From an uncultured delta proteobacterium (GTDB taxonomy: Bacteria; Desulfobacterota; BSN033; UBA1163), in the NCBI GenBank assembly GCA_963827685.1, contig CAWHBU010000003.1, positions 224,001 through 288,000 on the forward strand: 64,000 nt of DNA, written 5' to 3'. A model generated the notes under the pieces. It saw nothing but the letters and a program-made list of their open reading frames with translations. It searched no databases and was not told where the DNA came from. Both the position numbers and the translations under genes were made by a program. Below are positions 17,855 to 24,947 of this stretch, piece by piece (position 1 is the first letter of the stretch; each line of letters begins with the position of its first letter).

Positions 17855-17918
17855 ATAGAACGAAAAGGCTCATCGGGAGCCGGATTTATCGGCGATCCGA
17901 AGCAGCCGTTTGTTATCT
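17855..17918 (-). repeat. attC site (cassette 9)
   Basis: Minus strand AGATAAC...GTTCTAT palindrome, overlapping the stop of ORF 17913. Confidence 0.8.
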
Positions 17919-18377
17919 GCTCTTCGATTTTGCTTTGGCCCAGGTTTCACCGGTTCCGCGAACAACAACGATTTCATTGTCCTCGATATCTCGGACCAAG
18001 ATATTATTCATCCGCTTTTCGTCGGGCCGCTCTATTCTAAACTCGACTTCACTCACACCCCAAGGGTCAATTTTGATTGGTAAGTTTATCTGGTTTCTGT
18101 ATCCACGACCTTCCAAAATACTTTCACCCTCCCGGATATATATGTCAACTATTGCTGTAGGGCGATGGCTGAGATTCCTGAAGAGTAAAGTGATTTTAGT
18201 TCGGTCGTCATCGCTGCCAAGATAAAAGTTATTTCTCTGCCACACTTCGATTTGTGCCTTGCTCCTGGCACGTTCAGAAATGATATTCCAATAGAGGGCA
18301 ATTATGGCAACAGCGAGAGCAACACCTGAAATCAATATCGGTAACCACTTGCTCCAATTAAAATGTGCTTCGTCCAA
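17913..18377 (-). CDS. Cassette 9: N-terminal TM + beta-rich hypothetical protein
   Basis: TTG start after AAGGAG; stop inside the attC R'' box. Confidence 0.7.
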   Translation of the reverse strand: MDEAHFNWSKWLPILISGVALAVAIIALYWNIISERARSKAQIEVWQRNNFYLGSDDDRTKITLLFRNLSHRPTAIVDIYIREGESILEGRGYRNQINLPIKIDPWGVSEVEFRIERPDEKRMNNILVRDIEDNEIVVVRGTGETWAKAKSKSR

Positions 18378-18895
18378 AGTGAGACTCCTTTTATTTTATT
18401 ACGTGTAGATAACGCCGCGGATAACCTGGACAAAAAGCGCAAGCTTTTTGGATCAGGGTTGATCCGCTTGTTATATGGTATCGAGTTCAGAATAAGATAT
18501 GCTATGTTCTGCCGATGGTATAAAAAAATAGACCGATTCCATATTACCCAACTGATAAGCCCTCCAATACAATAAGCTAGCACATCAAAAGGGTCCGATG
18601 TGCCCTTTCCGAAAAAATAAGGACCGATAAATTCAAAAGCTATTGACCATATTGCTAATGGTATAACTATCTCCATAAGCATTGGAGGGGAATATTTTTC
18701 TCTGAACTTCAATATTCTTGAGAAAAAGAGAATTATAGGTAACATGACTGGTATCAGAAGCACATCGTTAAGATAGGCATTAATGAATTTGTGACCCCAC
18801 CAATAGGGTGGAAATAATGATAGCTTATTCACCGTGTATAATGTCGAGGAAAAGAGGAATAGAGGGTCTAAAATGTATTTAAAATTGGCATTCAT
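18332..18895 (-). CDS. Cassette 8 gene 2: membrane hypothetical protein (MNANFKY...; 'YLNDVL..P', 'FE', 'SDPFDVLAY'), frame runs through attC
   Basis: Hydrophobic ORF; ATG 5 bp after the upstream stop. Confidence 0.65.
   Translation of the reverse strand: MNANFKYILDPLFLFSSTLYTVNKLSLFPPYWWGHKFINAYLNDVLLIPVMLPIILFFSRILKFREKYSPPMLMEIVIPLAIWSIAFEFIGPYFFGKGTSDPFDVLAYCIGGLISWVIWNRSIFLYHRQNIAYLILNSIPYNKRINPDPKSLRFLSRLSAALSTRNKIKGVSLWTKHILIGASGYRY
18407..18476 (-). repeat. attC site (cassette 8)
   Basis: ATATAAC...GTTATCT with internal palindrome. Confidence 0.85.
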
Positions 18896-18900
18896 ATGAT

Positions 18901-19077
18901 TTATAATCCCAAGCTTATAATAATAACAGCAACTACTATTGCAGCAACAATTAAGAAAAAAAGTGCGCAACCGCTCATTCCTTGGGCTGTTTTCTTTAAT
19001 GGGTGTCCGCATTTCGGACACGAGGCTGCTTCGTTTGATACTACAGTTCCGCATGCAGGGCAATTAATCAGCGCCAT
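18901..19077 (-). CDS. Cassette 8 gene 1: 58-aa zinc-ribbon + TM protein (below the ORF-track cutoff)
   Basis: MALINCPACGTVVSNEAASCPKCGHPL...ALFFLIVAAIVVAVIIISLGL; GAAGGAGG RBS. Confidence 0.8.
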   Translation of the reverse strand: MALINCPACGTVVSNEAASCPKCGHPLKKTAQGMSGCALFFLIVAAIVVAVIIISLGL

Positions 19078-19136
19078 TGCTCCTCCTTCACATACACTTC
19101 GTAAACAAGTTAGAGAGTTAGCATATTTTCAAAAAT

Positions 19137-19224
19137 ATATAACGCTGTGCATCAGCCGACGCCGCCACTGAGACACGCTACAGGTGCCACGCTATTCGAC
19201 GTCGGCTGGATGCTGTTGTTGGCA
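19137..19224 (-). repeat. attC site (cassette 7)
   Basis: TGCCAAC...GTTATAT; stem GCATC(C)AGCCGACG. Confidence 0.85.
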
Positions 19225-19260
19225 ATGTATTTTCTTTATCATCATTTTTCCTGATTAAAC

Positions 19261-19806
19261 CTACCAATTATGAAAGCGCTTGGACATAAATGTGCAGACT
19301 AAAAGACTGCACGAAAGATTTTCACCAAGAGTTATGTCGATTAGATCACAGTTCTCTTTTTTGCTCAAATTGAGATTTGTCTTCTCATTTATTCTGTCTA
19401 AATAAAACTCCCAACGGGGATCACCGACGGGAATAGGAAAAAGTACAAATGCAACTATACCATTTTGTGAGTTTAACTTCTTGGCGTCATCGATAACCGA
19501 CTGAATATTTTTTGTAATTGGGCGACAATTTGTATTTATGCCCTGAATTCTCCAGTTTGTATTTGGCGTTTTTAACTCTATACTGTAAGGTTCGCCATTG
19601 TGGAAAAATGTTATATCAGTCCTGTCGCGGCGATGGTGGACCTTAGATTCAACTTCCACGTTCTTCATTTCCCTTTGTTCTAAATAGTGTGCGAGTTCAA
19701 ATTTCAACCATCCCTCGAACTTGGCCTTTTGCCTCAAGGGTATGCGTAACAGCGCCGCATTATTTTTTATAATATCGACTATTCCAGTGCGAATGAGCTT
19801 GTCCAT
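19261..19806 (-). CDS. Cassette 7: PD-(D/E)XK nuclease-like protein
   Basis: 'FEGWLKFEL...RTDITF...SIELKT'. Confidence 0.65.
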   Translation of the reverse strand: MDKLIRTGIVDIIKNNAALLRIPLRQKAKFEGWLKFELAHYLEQREMKNVEVESKVHHRRDRTDITFFHNGEPYSIELKTPNTNWRIQGINTNCRPITKNIQSVIDDAKKLNSQNGIVAFVLFPIPVGDPRWEFYLDRINEKTNLNLSKKENCDLIDITLGENLSCSLLVCTFMSKRFHNW

Positions 19807-19846
19807 GTAAGACCACGAATTATCATTTTCAGTTCATCAATATGCT

Positions 19847-19936
19847 TGCCAACGAATTGCATAACCTGCGCGGGCAATCAGTTATTCCCAAAACCTGACG
19901 CGACTAATCCGCGTCAGGTTCATGCAGTTGTTGGGC
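19847..19936 (-). repeat. attC site (cassette 6)
   Basis: GCCCAAC...GTTGGCA; stem TGCAT(G)AACCTG(A)CGCGG. Confidence 0.85.
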
Positions 19937-19937
19937 C

Positions 19938-20573
19938 TCAGCTAAACAATTTGGCTATTTCTGTTGATGCTGTGCTTAATACTACACCCAAAAGAAGCCA
20001 TACCAACCCCATGACGGAAATGCTCAGTCCGCCCGTCTGAGAGAGTTCTATCTTCCTCTTCGTCTCATCGTCCTCCTTTTCCCGCAAGACTCGCTCTTCA
20101 TGCAATTCTGATGTAATTTTTCGAGCTTCATCATCTAGCCGTTTGTCTACCTGAACTAATCTTTGATCCAGAGCCAAAAGATTTTCCTCCACTACTGCCA
20201 GCCTTTTCTCAATCGGTGCCTCCGGGCCAGCACCTTGCCAAAGGTGCGCACGTCCAGTTAACTGAATCGTTGGGAGACTAATGTTGCCCTCAAAGGATAC
20301 TGGCCTAGGCTTATATTTTGGAAACCGCTTAAGCCACTCCACTAAGTGTTCAAAGAAACCTGCACGTCCGAATAGCTTCCTTGTTTGTCTCAGACCCCAC
20401 ACCACTGTACTAATGCCACAAAGCTGCAGAACCAGGCCGGTGATTCTAATTTTCTGCTCAGTCACTCCTCCGAAAAGAGCCAAAGCCATAGACGCAACAA
20501 CCACAAATGTACACAGCCAAAACAGCCTGGGTTCTCTAATCCAACGCAAGACCGCTCTAACCCACCGAATCAA
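19938..20573 (-). CDS. Cassette 6: membrane protein (2 TM, coiled coil, C-terminal TM)
   Basis: Hydrophobic segments flanking the heptad region 'IEKRLAVVEENLLALDQRL...'. Confidence 0.7.
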   Translation of the reverse strand: MIRWVRAVLRWIREPRLFWLCTFVVVASMALALFGGVTEQKIRITGLVLQLCGISTVVWGLRQTRKLFGRAGFFEHLVEWLKRFPKYKPRPVSFEGNISLPTIQLTGRAHLWQGAGPEAPIEKRLAVVEENLLALDQRLVQVDKRLDDEARKITSELHEERVLREKEDDETKRKIELSQTGGLSISVMGLVWLLLGVVLSTASTEIAKLFS

Positions 20574-20599
20574 GCTCTTCTCCTATCAAAATTTTATAC

Positions 20600-20662
20600 G
20601 CCCAACGTGCGGCTCACCGAGAGCCGGGTTTATCGGCGATCCGGTGCAGCCGCTGGTTGGCA
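20600..20662 (-). repeat. attC site (cassette 5)
   Basis: TGCCAAC...GTTGGGC; near-copy of the 17855 attC. Confidence 0.85.
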
Positions 20663-20675
20663 TGTCATCAGTTCT

Positions 20676-20927
20676 TTACATGAGATCCAATTTATCGCCA
20701 ATGAATTGTTCAGCCATTTTAACCGACATCTCACGCGCGACTTTCTCAACATCATCAAGATTAATATTGGTGGTTTTTTTTAAGTCCAGCAGCTCCCACC
20801 TTGGGAAGTCCACAGTAACTTCAGATAATATCTGTCCATTACTCGATTCTCTAACTGTTACTTTGAATTGCTTACCTATGCCATCATCATGTTGTATCCA
20901 TTCGCTGGTAATCTTGACTTTAACCAT
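20676..20927 (-). CDS. Cassette 5: 83-aa hypothetical protein
   Basis: MVKVKITSEW...; AAGGAGAG RBS. Confidence 0.65.
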   Translation of the reverse strand: MVKVKITSEWIQHDDGIGKQFKVTVRESSNGQILSEVTVDFPRWELLDLKKTTNINLDDVEKVAREMSVKMAEQFIGDKLDLM

Positions 20928-20957
20928 TCTTCTCTCCTTAAACTGAATCTTATTGAG

Positions 20958-21084
20958 CGCTAACGTGGGCGTGAACGGCGAGAGGTTTGGCTGCACTTAA
21001 CCTGCTACTAAAATAAGACCTTGAGAGAGCATAAAACTGGCCAAAAAGCGAGAGCTCTCTCGTTCGCTCCACGCAGAGTTAGCT
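20958..21084 (-). repeat. attC site (cassette 4), long type
   Basis: AGCTAAC...GTTAGCG; stem GCGTGG(A)GCGAACG/GAGAG. Confidence 0.8.
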
Positions 21085-21091
21085 GTTTTTT

Positions 21092-22096
21092 TCATGAACT
21101 TATGGCTTTTAGCCACCATTTTTCTATGGATTCTTGAATGGAGTTTTGATTGATTGCCCCAATTAGTTCCTTTCCTGTTATGGGTACAATCAGAATATCG
21201 CCTTGTGAAGTTCTTAAGTCTTCCTTTACAAAGGTTTCCTTAAATCCATTCCAAGAAACAAAAAATCCAATCTTAGCTCTACTTCTTCGGTTTACAATCT
21301 TCTCTTTAAATAGGACTAATTCATTTTTGCCGCATTTTGAAGACCAATTCTTGCATTCAACTAGAATCAATGGTGACTCTTTTTGCCAGAAAACTTCTTT
21401 CGACTTATTTAGAATTACTAAATCTATTTCCTCTGTTTCAGTCTTAAGTCTCTCAATAATTTCAAACCCATCAATATTAGCGAAGAACTTAAATAAAAGT
21501 TCTTCCAGCAACCTTCCTTTAGTATTAGAGTCATCTTCAGCCTGAACTTTATTAATAAGTTCTGGAATCTCAATGAGTTTAAACTTGGAATATTCCCCAA
21601 CAATCTTTGATATTAATTTGCCTGTTTGCTCCTGAGCTTCATTAACAATCTTATCTACCCAATTTGATACAGACAATCCATATTGGTAAACATCATATAG
21701 AGTAGAAACCTCATCAGGAATGATTGTGTAGTAAAGATGACACCAATCTCCTTCATCTGAAAACTCAATATCTTCAATGTCTTTGTGTTCTTTCTGCCTG
21801 AATTCAACTAATCTTTTCATTAAATCCATATGGAATGGCATGCCCAATGGGGCTGTCCACCATTTTCGATACCAATTATGGGACATATAGATGCAAATTC
21901 TACCGTCTTTCCACCCGATAGTACCCTCGAGGTCGACATAATGGATATTGTCCTCTCCAAGCTTAGAAACTTCAATGGTGACGTTTTTAGAAACTTCAGA
22001 TATGTTTATTTTGGGTGTATCTTCTGGTTCCAAATGAACTGGTTCTTCCGAATCTACACTATCGCTGATAATCTCCAATAACTTTTCCTTTTCCAT
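21092..22096 (-). CDS. Cassette 4: Mrr-like restriction endonuclease (C-terminal Mrr_cat-type domain) with an unknown N-terminal domain
   Basis: 'KGRLLEEL...EEIDLVI...LVECKNW...VSWNGF'. Confidence 0.8.
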   Translation of the reverse strand: MEKEKLLEIISDSVDSEEPVHLEPEDTPKINISEVSKNVTIEVSKLGEDNIHYVDLEGTIGWKDGRICIYMSHNWYRKWWTAPLGMPFHMDLMKRLVEFRQKEHKDIEDIEFSDEGDWCHLYYTIIPDEVSTLYDVYQYGLSVSNWVDKIVNEAQEQTGKLISKIVGEYSKFKLIEIPELINKVQAEDDSNTKGRLLEELLFKFFANIDGFEIIERLKTETEEIDLVILNKSKEVFWQKESPLILVECKNWSSKCGKNELVLFKEKIVNRRSRAKIGFFVSWNGFKETFVKEDLRTSQGDILIVPITGKELIGAINQNSIQESIEKWWLKAISS

Positions 22097-22143
22097 AAAA
22101 AGTCAGTGTATTAAATCGAACATTTTGACAAGCAAATCTACAC

Positions 22144-22508
22144 AGCTAACGAGCCTGTAGAAAAAGTCACTTTTTTAAAAAACGCTTCTTCTGCCGGATC
22201 AACAATAGGAAATTACTTTCTGTCATCAAAAGTTTTTCCGATCCTTGGTGCAATGTTAGTCTTTTCATGATATTTCTCTTACCACAAAACCCTATCACAC
22301 CATCCGGCTCCTTCACGCAAACTCCAGACCGTATCGATCGGAATAATCATAGTCCTTATATCTCGCCATCCAGTCCCTCCTAAGCGGCCCCGCTCTCTTT
22401 TCCGTTACTGATATGGCGATATTATCATGCTTCCAGGACTTTTTCTACAGCCTCAACGCCTGAAATCAGCGGTGGCTATCAGCCATTCGCTGCAATGACG
22501 TGTCAGCC
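22144..22508 (-). repeat. attC site (cassette 3) interrupted at its GTT core by an IS remnant
   Basis: Removing 22151-22457 restores GGCTGAC...GTTAGCT. Confidence 0.8.
22151..22454 (-). mobile_element. 304-bp internally deleted IS1182-like element (MITE)
   Basis: 18-bp TIRs GAG(C/G)CTGTAGAAAAAGTC (17/18 match); AAC duplication; RBS + transposase-like start MARYKDYDYS at 22369. Confidence 0.75.
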
Positions 22509-23102
22509 ACGTTTTGCAGGCGGATCACAATACTCACTAAGACAGTCGCCAATCAAATCGGCAAGTGGTGTTTGTGCCATTACCCCAAATAGGTCTTCCC
22601 AGGTAATGATGCTTGAACCCTGCTTCGCCAGGACAGGCCAATCCTTCTTCTTTTCGTGACCATGCGACAGAAGATAGTATAGATTGCAGTCCCATGAACT
22701 ACTATGCAAATATTGATATAGGTGGTGATACAACGAAATATTTCTTACGACCGATTCGGATAATGTTTTCACCTCTATCAAAACCACTTTCTTATTCTTC
22801 TTGTCTATGTGCAGAATGTCAGGCTTAATATATGCAAATCGTTTGTCGAAATCCTGAATGCCAAAATTCTCACCCGTCAAACCGTTTTCGCACACAGTAT
22901 TAAGGTATGTAAAACCAGAGACCAAGAATTCGCCTTTAGCGGTGAGGTATCCATCATCATCTGATTCATACACTGGCAACCTGATTCCCGGCATGTTCGC
23001 CGAGATGTATATCAACGACATTTGAGCAACAGCAGCCCATCTTGACTCTGAATTCTTCATTAATCGGGATGGTTTCTCGAAAAGATATGTCGCGTTACTC
23101 AT
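22503..23102 (-). CDS. Cassette 3: PD-(D/E)XK nuclease-like protein
   Basis: 'SESRW...KPDILHID....LIEVKT'. Confidence 0.7.
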   Translation of the reverse strand: MSNATYLFEKPSRLMKNSESRWAAVAQMSLIYISANMPGIRLPVYESDDDGYLTAKGEFLVSGFTYLNTVCENGLTGENFGIQDFDKRFAYIKPDILHIDKKNKKVVLIEVKTLSESVVRNISLYHHLYQYLHSSSWDCNLYYLLSHGHEKKKDWPVLAKQGSSIITWEDLFGVMAQTPLADLIGDCLSEYCDPPAKRG

Positions 23103-23117
23103 GTGCGTCTCCGGTAT

Positions 23118-23183
23118 GGCTAACGTGATGGTCACCAGCGTGGCGCGCCGTTTTGCCACGTCCGATTCACCTACCCGTTAGGC
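23118..23183 (-). repeat. attC site (cassette 2)
   Basis: GCCTAAC...GTTAGCC with internal stem CGTGGC. Confidence 0.8.
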
Positions 23184-23186
23184 AAT

Positions 23187-24045
23187 TCACCAGGTCCAGC
23201 GTTGAGATGCCAAGAAAGCATCAATCCCGCCTGACCCCACGACAGCTATCGTGCGTGCGTATTCGACCTCTAGGAGATCCCCAAGAGCGGCCCTTGAGAA
23301 GGGCTCATCCTTTGGCACTTGCCGATCTATTGCATGCTGTAGGCCGGGTGAAACGTGGTATTGAAGCCATAACCACGGTTTTTCGACAACATCGGCAGAA
23401 CCGAGCGCCACGTGTCCGGTAGTGACGTCCGATGCAATGTCTATGTCCGTCGCCCATATTTTGGCGGTCGTGAATATCACAGGGATGAAACTTATGGGGA
23501 AGTTCTCGGCCATGTAGCGTTGGTTTTTCGAGAAACACTCGATAAGCCCATTTACGCCTCGAATGACTTGAGTCGCGGCTTCTTCGATCGTCCCGCGACC
23601 AGTGCCACTAGCGTCGCCCTTGGCAGCGCCCTTCACTTCGACTGCTACGTGGTAAATCATTTCAGACCCGTCGAGACGGCTGAGGGACGCGGTCAAAGCA
23701 TTCCCCTCTCTCCGTACAGATTCAACCAGAATGTCTTTCGGTACACCACCTCTACGCACGTAAGGTGGCTTGAGCGAACAACCAGTCGCTAAGCGATGGA
23801 TTTGCCCGCTTGCATTCGGCCACAAGGTATCGGAAAGACCCCTTGGCGACTTCGCTCCATTGACTCAGGACAAAGTCGATTCGCGTGTGGTAGCTCTGCA
23901 ACTCGACAGGGAACTCGGACGCCTCGAACACCCACGGTGAACGCCTCTCATCGTTCAGTTGGTGGGCGCGTCGAATCACTGCGTACTGGAACGGATGGCC
24001 CTGTCGGTTGAGGGCTGCTTCGAAAATCGTCTTCTGGTCGGTCAT
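23187..24045 (-). CDS. Cassette 2: PD-(D/E)XK nuclease-like protein, apparent +1 frameshift at about 23775
   Basis: 'GHPFQ...EFPV...RIDFVL...VAECKR..DWLF' continuing into 'PVIFTTA'; span is 3n+1. Confidence 0.7.
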
Positions 24046-24057
24046 TTCTCCTCGCAT

Positions 24058-24088
24058 GCCTAACGAGCCTCTAGGAAAAGTCTATAGA
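24058..24088 (-). mobile_element. Lone IS1182-like terminal repeat abutting the GTTAGGC core; the rest of the cassette-1 attC is missing
   Basis: GCCTAAC|GAGCCTCTAGGAAAAGTC, 16/18 identical to the TIR at 22151. Confidence 0.65.
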
Positions 24089-24947
24089 TCACTTTAATTT
24101 GAATATTGATTTCGTAAAATCATTTGGATTCAAACGGCTTTTTTCAAAATAGTCTTTTAGCTTTTGAAAGGCTTCTTTATCAGATTCCTGCCAAGACAAA
24201 CCCATTACTGTTGCCGACTTTACAAATGCTTCTTTTGCTTTATCGAAACAGACGCCCCCAAAAAAGTAAGGTTGATACCATTGCCTAGAAGATGTGTCTA
24301 GACTTTCATTTGTAATCCAAGTCTGGTATCCAAAAGACACTGGAATACCAGCAATTCTATATGCATAGTTTTGGTGTTCGAATGAAACCCATTCGTCAAG
24401 TATCTTAAATATTTTCTCTCTAAATATTTCATCTGATAGTTGCATCGTATCAAGTTTTATTATAGGTTTACCCAAGTGAATAACAGTTTCATGCTCTGTT
24501 TCCTCTGGTTGTTTCAATTCGGTATTAAGGCCATCTTCAGGAAGGAAGAGTAAATTGTTATTCACAAACCCTTTTGTTTCCCATTGAAGTATAAAAGTCA
24601 ACGTCCAAGAACAATACAATTTAAGAGATGCTTTCTCTCGGTTAACTCGAGGCAAAAAATAAAGGGATATTCAGGTTTTTTAACCAATTCAGTAAATGCT
24701 CCCCATTATAACGAAATGCTTCTTCACCCGATTTGACTTGTATGCCAAATACTTTTTTTACGTAACCAACAGAGCCTTTGACTTCCATCAATGAACAAAT
24801 CAAATCCACGCCATAGTCATTTTCTGTGGTTGCTCTTATACATGGGCCAAATTCAGAGAGAATATACTGGGCGAGGTATTCAGCACGGATTCCTTGCTTT
24901 CGATTAACAGCAACCTTTCCACCTGATTCTTTTCCTGCCATAATCAT
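24089..24947 (-). CDS. Cassette 1: DUF4365-type PD-(D/E)XK nuclease-like protein, apparent +1 frameshift at about 24652
   Basis: 'GIRAE...NDYGVDL...FGIQVKSG...NIPLF'; span is 3n+1. Confidence 0.7.

Follow-up and report, generated by a model that had tools for sequence, protein, structure and literature searches.

A transposon remnant lying exactly in the core of a cassette recombination site raises the question of whether it came there by accident or belongs to a lineage that homes to such sites. The case considered here is a 64,000-nucleotide stretch (hereafter, the window) of contig CAWHBU010000003.1 from an uncultured delta proteobacterium. It holds a minus-strand gene-cassette array (17859 to 24064) made up of open reading frames (ORFs) of unknown function with an imperfect palindrome between one and the next; RYYYAAC and GTTRRRY border these palindromes, and GC content differs from cassette to cassette. 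One of these palindromes, an attC site, is interrupted at its R′ box by a 304-bp element with terminal inverted ends, and a solitary end of the same kind abuts a second R′ box half nearby. We consider it very probable that a DDE transposon of a divergent branch of the IS1182 family targets the GTT of attC R′ boxes, that the 304-bp element is a miniature copy derived from a 1.8-kb insertion sequence (IS), and that the window holds two hits of this kind. The comparisons below show the anatomy of the element, its family, and its specificity for site and orientation across lineages.

A miniature element, its parent, and a solitary end

The interrupted attC and the element within it comprise the following features.

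22144 to 22150, plus strand: R′ box of the interrupted attC (bottom-strand reading AGCTAAC); its last three bases are the first copy of the target duplication
22151 to 22454, plus strand: 304-bp nonautonomous deletion derivative of the 1.8-kb IS, recognized by its matching ends and by alignment to the parent
22151 to 22168, plus strand: left inverted end (IRL), GAGCCTGTAGAAAAAGTC, with C at position 4
22313 to 22369, minus strand: transposase start remnant, with a ribosome-binding site, ATG, and 10 codons, then out of frame to a stop (by comparison with intact copies)
22437 to 22454, minus strand: right inverted end (IRR), an inverted copy of GAGCCTGTAGAAAAAGTC with one mismatch and G at position 4
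22455 to 22508, minus strand: body of the interrupted attC (covariance model, E of 2.1e-6, model positions 1 to 59); AAC at 22455 to 22457 is the second copy of the target duplication

AAC thus stands on either side of the element, at 22148 to 22150 and at 22455 to 22457. At up to three mismatches, GAGCCTGTAGAAAAAGTC matches three times in the window, where 0.05 matches are expected, and none of 100 shuffled sequences reached three. The remnant reads MARYKDYDYS from the ATG at 22369 on the minus strand before the frame is lost, while intact copies start MARYKEFDYSQGKF. An original prediction, made from the letters of the window, had described a 304-bp element with 18-bp terminal inverted repeats, a transposase start remnant, and a duplicated AAC in the attC core, and each of these features was recovered. 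It had also placed the insertion at the crossover triplet, correctly: integrase crossover takes place inside the conserved GTT/AAC triplet of R′, the duplicated triplet is this same GTT/AAC, and the joints of the transposon flank it.

The full-length parents that the original prediction proposed to look for are present in the same genome, as five copies of 1802 to 1803 bp that are 98.6 to 100% identical, each with an intact 517-amino-acid frame starting MARYKEFDYSQGKF. At 88 to 92% identity, the 304-bp element corresponds to IS nucleotides 1 to 188 (the left 188 bp) joined to nucleotides 1688 to 1803 (the right 114 bp). The deletion borders recur in another 304-bp copy (G000:C2:594200-594503), which is 88% identical to the window copy, and these common borders imply that the deletion form moved, or was copied, as a unit. 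Other deletion forms in the genome measure 405 bp and 586 bp, and two solo ends are also present. Being noncoding, with the ends of its parent, the same target duplication, and two copies of one deletion form, the 304-bp element has the makeup of a miniature inverted-repeat transposable element (MITE), which would have been mobilized in trans. No outward promoter or terminator was found in or beside it. Across the genome, 8 of 10 left ends are preceded by AAC and 8 of 10 right ends are followed by it, while one full-length copy (G000:C1:62730-64531) has AAT at both sides, which is consistent with the triplet being a duplication and not part of the element. Right flanks of different copies are mutually unrelated, and most reach GTTRRRY after 45 to 80 bases.

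The miniature at G000:C2:594200-594503 has AAC/AAA flanks, with CTCAC on one side and GTGAG on the other that may form a small hairpin. On C8, the left flank of the full-length copy (G000:C8:39941-40940; L011:1-1000; L003:894-1226) holds a radical-SAM-type-looking gene truncated at 110 amino acids, and this copy may mark a rearrangement border rather than a plain array insertion.

The transposase of the intact copies matches the NCBIfam model NF033551, "IS1182 family transposase," with an E of 8.1e-76 and 255.8 bits over positions 34 to 486 of 488, and the next NCBIfam family, IS5, reaches 36 bits. Its Pfam domains are DUF772 (PF05598), DDE_Tnp_1, and DDE_Tnp_1_6 (PF13751), with PF05598 and PF13751 above their gathering scores. 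Over ~500 amino acids, it is 24 to 28% identical to four annotated IS1182-family transposases, which are 25 to 38% identical among themselves, and D142, D306, and E470 are conserved without exception in an alignment of eight transposases. A single 517-amino-acid ORF between 18-bp terminal inverted ends, in an element of 1802 to 1803 bp, is the layout of an IS1182-type element, a family whose length range in ISfinder is ~1.3 to 1.95 kb. The IS1111-attC group is marked by a DEDD transposase and a seekRNA region; the Pfam domains found here are of the DDE_Tnp_1 type only, and the element is not a member of that group. On these sequence comparisons, we place the element in the IS1182 family as a divergent member that misses the curated score, in line with the relationship originally predicted. 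Four cysteines (380, 410, 413, and 419 in P0001) are also invariant in all eight aligned IS1182-type transposases, which suggests that the segment from the second D to the E contains a putative zinc-binding insert.

The second hit is a solitary end, with these features around it.

24058 to 24064, plus strand: R′ box half (GCCTAAC) at the start of the cassette 23184 to 24064, read from the sequence
24065 to 24082, plus strand: solo left-end remnant of a related element, GAGCCTCTAGGAAAAGTC, matching the left end at 16 of 18 positions
24089 to 24947, minus strand: two overlapping ORFs, a cassette without attC; DUF4365 in the upstream ORF, no covariance-model match

This solo end has the orientation of the left end of the 304-bp element, with two mismatches, and directly follows GCCTAAC two cassettes upstream in the direction of the array, the cassettes in between being 22455 to 23126 and 23184 to 24064. 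The stop codon of the next ORF (24089 to 24091) falls six bases past it, and beyond it the covariance model finds no attC. The prediction of a diverged end at the same AAC position two cassettes upstream, with the attC otherwise deleted, therefore agrees with what we found. The simplest reading is an old R′ insertion, after which a deletion removed both the attC body and all of the element except this end. Having lost its attC, the cassette would not be excisable by itself, in keeping, for this one case, with the suggestion that such elements immobilize or fuse cassettes.

attC sites beside element ends in this and other genomes

So that the attC sites need not be judged by eye, a covariance model was made from 11 elements of other genomes by aligning their right-hand flanks and adding the hairpin structure visible in that alignment. 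For the window, seven uninterrupted attC sites had been marked by eye; the array lies on the minus strand, so that matches of this bottom-strand model are on the plus strand. Upon folding, all seven gave attC-like hairpins with bulged bases and paired AAC/GTT feet. These seven sites and the interrupted one have RYYYAAC and GTTRRRY borders around a bulged palindrome, lie between ORFs, and point in one orientation. The uninterrupted sites are as follows.

17859 to 17918, minus strand: attC (covariance model, E of 2.3e-6; hairpin with paired AAC/GTT)
18411 to 18476, minus strand: attC (covariance model, E of 6.2e-6; folding)
19141 to 19224, minus strand: attC (covariance model, E of 5.4e-5; folding)
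19851 to 19936, minus strand: attC (covariance model, E of 1.9e-8; folding)
20604 to 20662, minus strand: attC (covariance model, E of 7.7e-8; folding)
20958 to 21084, minus strand: long attC-like site of 127 nucleotides (by eye and folding only; missed by the covariance model)
23118 to 23183, minus strand: attC, GGCTAAC to GTTAGGC (by eye and folding only; missed by the covariance model)

The model recovered five of these seven sites (E of 1.9e-8 to 5.4e-5) and the interrupted site at 22455 to 22508 (E of 2.1e-6), i.e., six of eight, all on one strand, and gave no further hit below an E of 0.1 in the 64 kb. Element flanks from elsewhere thus describe the attC array of this window. Across the 5.2-Mb genome, there were at least 23 hits at an E of ≤0.01 (150 of 835 candidates scored), and after 6 of the 10 right ends, a hit begins exactly at the AAC. 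Three other approaches to the attC sites were dropped or left unused: a duplex-energy test of the arms was too strict and missed obvious sites, a genome-wide search by regular expression plus folding caught mainly other palindromic repeats and missed real sites, and a MAFFT alignment of the seven window attC sites, which placed length differences wrongly, did not enter the model.

Related ends were sought with an 18-mer carrying two degenerate positions in one genome per species (596 billion bases), which returned at least 120 loci and at least 121 ends. Among the 121 ends listed, the outer triplet was AAC in 49, GTT in 37, and another triplet in 35, where chance would give AAC or GTT in 2 of 64. 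By arithmetic, ~70 chance matches of the degenerate 18-mer are expected, so that many of the 35 other ends are probably chance. The hairpin test was positive for 17 of the 37 GTT ends, none of the 49 AAC ends, and none of the 35 others, over a background of 50 in 3000 random sites. A model hit adjoins 23 of the 37 GTT ends listed; 11 of these had built the model, and among the remaining 26, 12 adjoined a hit. One GTA-flanked end among those listed also adjoins a hit. At nine further listed loci, the hit lies 97 to 160 bases inside the matched end, and eight of the nine have a second inverted end right before AAC; these are miniature elements of 146 to 160 bp inserted at attC R′. Titles of the records behind the listed loci name Gammaproteobacteria and Betaproteobacteria, Thermodesulfobacteriota, Nitrospirota, Binatia, Fibrobacterota, Gemmatimonadota, Spirochaetota, and others, many of them metagenome bins whose labels are only as good as the binning.

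A second sample, selected by protein rather than by end, consists of 80 metagenome loci with a transposase identity of 75 to 95%. GTT ends 71 of 72 upstream flanks and starts 74 of 76 downstream flanks, and the seven downstream bases follow the R′ consensus, most commonly as GTTAGGC. C occupies position −4 in 69 of 69 flanks, and A occupies position −12 in 94%. A model hit exactly adjoins 44 of the 62 upstream ends with a flank of at least 60 bases, and all 88 hits in these loci, adjoining or not, have a single orientation relative to the transposase gene. More distant relatives (45 to 50% identity), found in Marinobacter algicola DG893, Mangrovitalea sediminis, Tamilnaduibacter salinus, Agaribacter marinus, and two Pseudoalteromonas replicons, share the end sequence and are flanked by TAAC/CGTT, with model hits adjoining the ends at three loci (L228, L231, and L145). 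In a plasmid collection, the nearest relatives were 42 to 45% identical (Pseudoalteromonas and Catenovulum replicons), and no close relative on a clinical plasmid was found there. The proposal of an attC-targeting IS lineage, which was to be checked by tabulating flanks, is thus supported by the genome itself (6 of 10 right ends), by the end-found and protein-found loci, and by cultured Gammaproteobacteria.

The four annotated IS1182-family elements with 24 to 28% identity had no attC model hit beside them. One of the four, on plasmid pPHE24 of Pseudomonas fluorescens (L239:582-618 and 2185-2221), occupies the loop of a terminator-like hairpin (AAAAACCCGCC / GGCGGGTTTTT) and is flanked by TTAAT at either end, a case of loop duplication at a hairpin target within the family.

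Four public metagenome runs provide a view of the element in its community. Summed contig depth over the element ends (window 22070 to 22577) was ~4,000 in run X2, ~450 in X5, and up to 75 in X3, against 2 to 8 for neighboring host DNA where covered (~8 in X2); in these communities of wetland and sediment, the family is highly abundant. In run X1, a 502-base contig (record 5; window 22340 to 22805) carries the exact right end, attC, and cassette of the window with no differences, joined to the 5′ part of a full-length transposase gene (…QGKFIPIHFD). A full-length copy may occupy the same site in some cells, or the join may be an artifact of the assembly graph. Three pairs of metagenome loci (L147/L180, L195/L199, and L201/L202) have the element and one flank in common but part ways at the other flank; the break falls exactly on the element border or, in L201/L202, on the outer border of the adjoining attC. 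Judging from these short flanks, the pairs hint at rearrangement at element borders and could reflect integrase action on a usable attC, transposition within the array, exchange between copies, or independent hits.

Site choice and competing explanations

In all cases, the element lies at the R′ end of attC and never at the mirror-image R″ end, on the strand expected from uninterrupted neighbors, both in the window and in the metagenome loci. Along the cassette strand come, in turn, the cassette, the attC body, GTT, the transposase-start end, the transposase gene, the other end, GTT-RRRY, and the next cassette. The two ends are distinguished at position 4, which among the ends in L147 to L226 is G in 85% of those adjoining the attC body and C in 74% of the remainder, and the window element conforms. 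As a result of this inequality, the cassette strand reads AGGC near both ends, resembling the AGGC of the R′ box GTTAGGC. The sites themselves offer another asymmetry: on the bottom strand, the R′ arm is AACG in seven of seven window sites, while the R″ arm is AACA in four and AACC, AACT, and AACG in one each, and this one-base difference could alone account for insertion at R′ and not at R″. Mimicry of R′ by the end was examined through pairing of R″ with IS bases 2 to 5 (AGGC), which averaged 2.3 of 4 (41 of 44 adjoined attC sites), compared to 2.0 of 4 for native RRRY (n = 32) and 1.9 of 4 for IS bases 1 to 4. We found no real difference, and the test is neutral.

A mechanism consistent with these patterns can be outlined. 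The transposase would read the R′-side arm of attC, 5′-A-N7-C-GTT-3′ followed by RRRY, and would join both ends across the R′ GTT with joints staggered by three bases, which would yield the 3-bp duplication upon insertion. Miniature copies would be moved in trans by the enzyme of full-length copies. So short a word is far too common to specify the site, so palindrome or hairpin context is most likely needed too, and the extra information may be a longer sequence, the shape of the duplex, an extruded cruciform, or a folded single strand.

Three other explanations have to be weighed. The solo end might be a chance look-alike, or a piece of the cassette's own recombination site. Its match is limited to 18 bases with two mismatches, and the bases beyond are similar to none of the copies; in addition, GTTAGGC in the window is not above chance, with 3 found and 3.8 expected. 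Yet only 0.05 matches of this type are expected per window, and this one begins exactly after TAAC at a cassette border, has the orientation of a left end and its C at position 4, and agrees best, at 17 of 18 positions, with a left end in another locus (L209), that of a 159-bp miniature element. Solo ends also occur elsewhere in the genome (a left end only at C6:353822 and a right end only at C3:1075971), and we regard both forms of this explanation as quite improbable. Harder still to credit is the idea that the attC-like arm is part of the mobile unit and is carried along, with no insertion into a preexisting attC. It would account for the several full-length copies in this genome that adjoin a single attC with no array, and for L201 and L202, which have the adjoining attC, the IS, and the downstream flank in common and differ upstream of the attC. 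It is at odds with the attC bodies beside different copies, which are unrelated to each other, and with the likeness among copies, which ends at the 18-bp end; moreover, the interrupted attC of the window has the orientation and build of its uninterrupted neighbors, and metagenome contigs part from each other exactly at the element borders.

The remaining alternative is that the transposase reads nothing except a short word, roughly A-N7-CGTT and perhaps RRRY, so that palindrome and fold are irrelevant. The invariant C at −4 and the nearly invariant A at −12 in the metagenome flanks suit this view, as does the presence of the word even at the 18 of 62 ends that have no model hit. The AACG arm of all seven intact window sites, facing a varied R″ side, means that one base could explain the choice of R′, and the copies on C1 and C2 lie outside recognizable attC sites. 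By arithmetic, however, A-N7-CGTT is expected about ten thousand times in 5.2 Mb, where the model finds at least 23 attC sites, and yet 6 of 10 right ends are on an attC, so that more than the word must be read. A relative within the family, IS1272, reportedly selects inverted repeats whose sequences are unrelated (PMC5678879). We therefore think recognition of the word alone unlikely, and we retain the reading in which an IS1182-type transposon targets the attC R′ box. A bolder version of that reading, which we regard as doubtful although less so than the alternatives above, is that the DDE lineage reads a folded or extruded attC as the integrase does, and that its ends are shaped to leave the upstream attC with a usable R′ box, the element and next cassette together forming a unit for excision and reinsertion by the integrase. 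The junction reads GTT-G-AGGC on the top strand, versus GTT-AGGC in native sites. If the bolder version were true, the transposon would have two ways of moving, and cassettes would be reshuffled or deleted by transposition within the array.

Several observations count against targeting of attC R′ boxes by an IS1182-type transposon. The 255.8 bits of the transposase fall short of the curated 270-bit cutoff of NF033551. Within the genome, 4 of 10 right ends (C1, C2, C5, and C9) have no adjoining model hit; C5 and C9 keep the AACG…GTT frame with a weak fold, and C1 and C2 are the copies outside recognizable attC sites, so that either specificity is not absolute or such sites have decayed. The same holds for 18 of the 62 upstream ends in the metagenome set, whose loci are close relatives, some sampled twice (L175/L177 and L209/L211), so that the counts do not represent independent events. 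The model was itself built from element flanks, and its sole independent check is the set of sites identified by eye and folding, of which it missed two of seven. The only integrase found in the genome is a C-terminal fragment, so that these attC sites may be inactive. Our data do not separate recognition of sequence from recognition of structure. Finally, there was no sign of an empty site, an excision product, or a transposition event: in contigs of the four public runs, no joint skips 22151 to 22454, and the joints present run from end to end and could stem from other miniature forms or from assembly effects.

The array and its relation to known attC-homing elements

No integrase domain was found by Pfam among the 33 ORFs scanned between 8715 and 37802. 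The sole IntI-like sequence found in the genome (G000:C3:782919-783275; L141:1492-1857) lies ~540 kb from the array and is a C-terminal fragment, scoring 191 bits on model positions 197 to 315 within a 141-amino-acid open frame, with no N-terminal integrase part adjoining it. Because it has at least two attC sites and no intI nearby, the array is a cluster of attC sites lacking integron integrases (CALIN). Pfam found Mrr_cat and DUF4365 in the cassette ORFs and nothing more, and PADLOC and NCBIfam each gave no match for 12 ORFs. Two pairs of minus-strand ORFs overlap. In the cassette without attC, ORFs 24089 to 24655 and 24642 to 24947, the upstream of which matches only part of DUF4365, are probably one gene with a frameshift; within a single cassette, ORFs 23187 to 23825 and 23752 to 24057, which have no family match, may represent either a single gene with a frameshift or a cassette of two genes.

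Integron cassette arrays are a principal repository of adaptive, defense, and resistance genes. The spread of this lineage over many labeled phyla points to widespread transposons specialized on such arrays, and their insertions may explain loss of attC sites, fusion of cassettes, and the breakup of arrays into clusters without an integrase. The lineage also offers a tractable case of a DDE enzyme reading a site defined more by shape than by sequence, and it can be put to the test in cultured carriers, e.g., Marinobacter algicola DG893.

Like other bacterial MITEs derived from IS, the element described here is short and noncoding, with the ends of its parent, a target duplication, and a shared deletion; it differs in its specificity for attC R′. 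Reported integron-associated MITEs bracket entire integrons, and no MITE inside an attC was described in the literature searched. Likewise, we found no description of IS1182-type elements or their MITEs as attC specific in the full-text literature searched, which included the available portions of PMC11089894, PMC12444791, PMC7923331, PMC8876359, PMC9137128, and bioRxiv 10.1101/2021.07.26.453812, with subscription journals, ISfinder, and TnCentral outside the search. Among plant cassette amplicons, about half of the transposases are reported to be of the IS5 type, with no word on targeting (PMC11089894).

Within the IS1182 family, a similar end is that of ISBce1, whose end GAGGTTGTCCCAAAAGT agrees with GAGGCTGTAGAAAAAGT at 13 of 17 places (by eye, in an ISBce1-family copy). 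ISBce1 and the other annotated members align over their full length at 24 to 28% with the same D, D, and E and the same four cysteines; unlike the element here, the four annotated members have no attC model hit alongside. That hairpin targets are favored in the family, as the original prediction stated, is in print for IS1272 of Staphylococcus, which is described as selecting inverted-repeat or stem-loop targets of unrelated sequence by their shape (PMC5678879). In that description, IS1272 replaces the stem-loop and makes no duplication, whereas in our case, the hairpin stays whole on one side, three bases are duplicated, and a single class of site, attC R′, is used.

To our knowledge, the mobile elements so far known to home to attC are of two kinds, both of which find their site through RNA. 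The IS1111-attC group has subterminal repeats and is not known to make a target duplication. Its entry into attC sites was reportedly described by Tetu and Holmes in 2008 and by Post and Hall in 2009. Members such as ISPa21, ISPst6, and ISKpn4 are described as entering one end of attC at a fixed place and in a fixed orientation by means of a DEDD enzyme guided by a seekRNA (PMC11187229). The fixed place and orientation are common to those elements and ours, but here the enzyme carries DDE_Tnp_1 and DDE_Tnp_1_6 domains, the inverted ends are truly terminal, and 3 bp are duplicated, so that the way in which the site is found must differ from that of the seekRNA and DEDD system. The second kind, the group IIC-attC introns (e.g., S.ma.I2), are described as homing to attC, where they part a cassette from its neighbor and might change how downstream cassettes are expressed (PMC8876359 and PMC3001079). 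They are retroelements, with a ribozyme and a reverse transcriptase, that use RNA targeting, and the element here has no such parts. A DDE transposon that inserts at the same three bases in one orientation would represent a third, protein-based solution. We conclude that this is an attC-homing element carried by an IS1182-family DDE transposon, with an outcome like that of the two known kinds and membership in neither.

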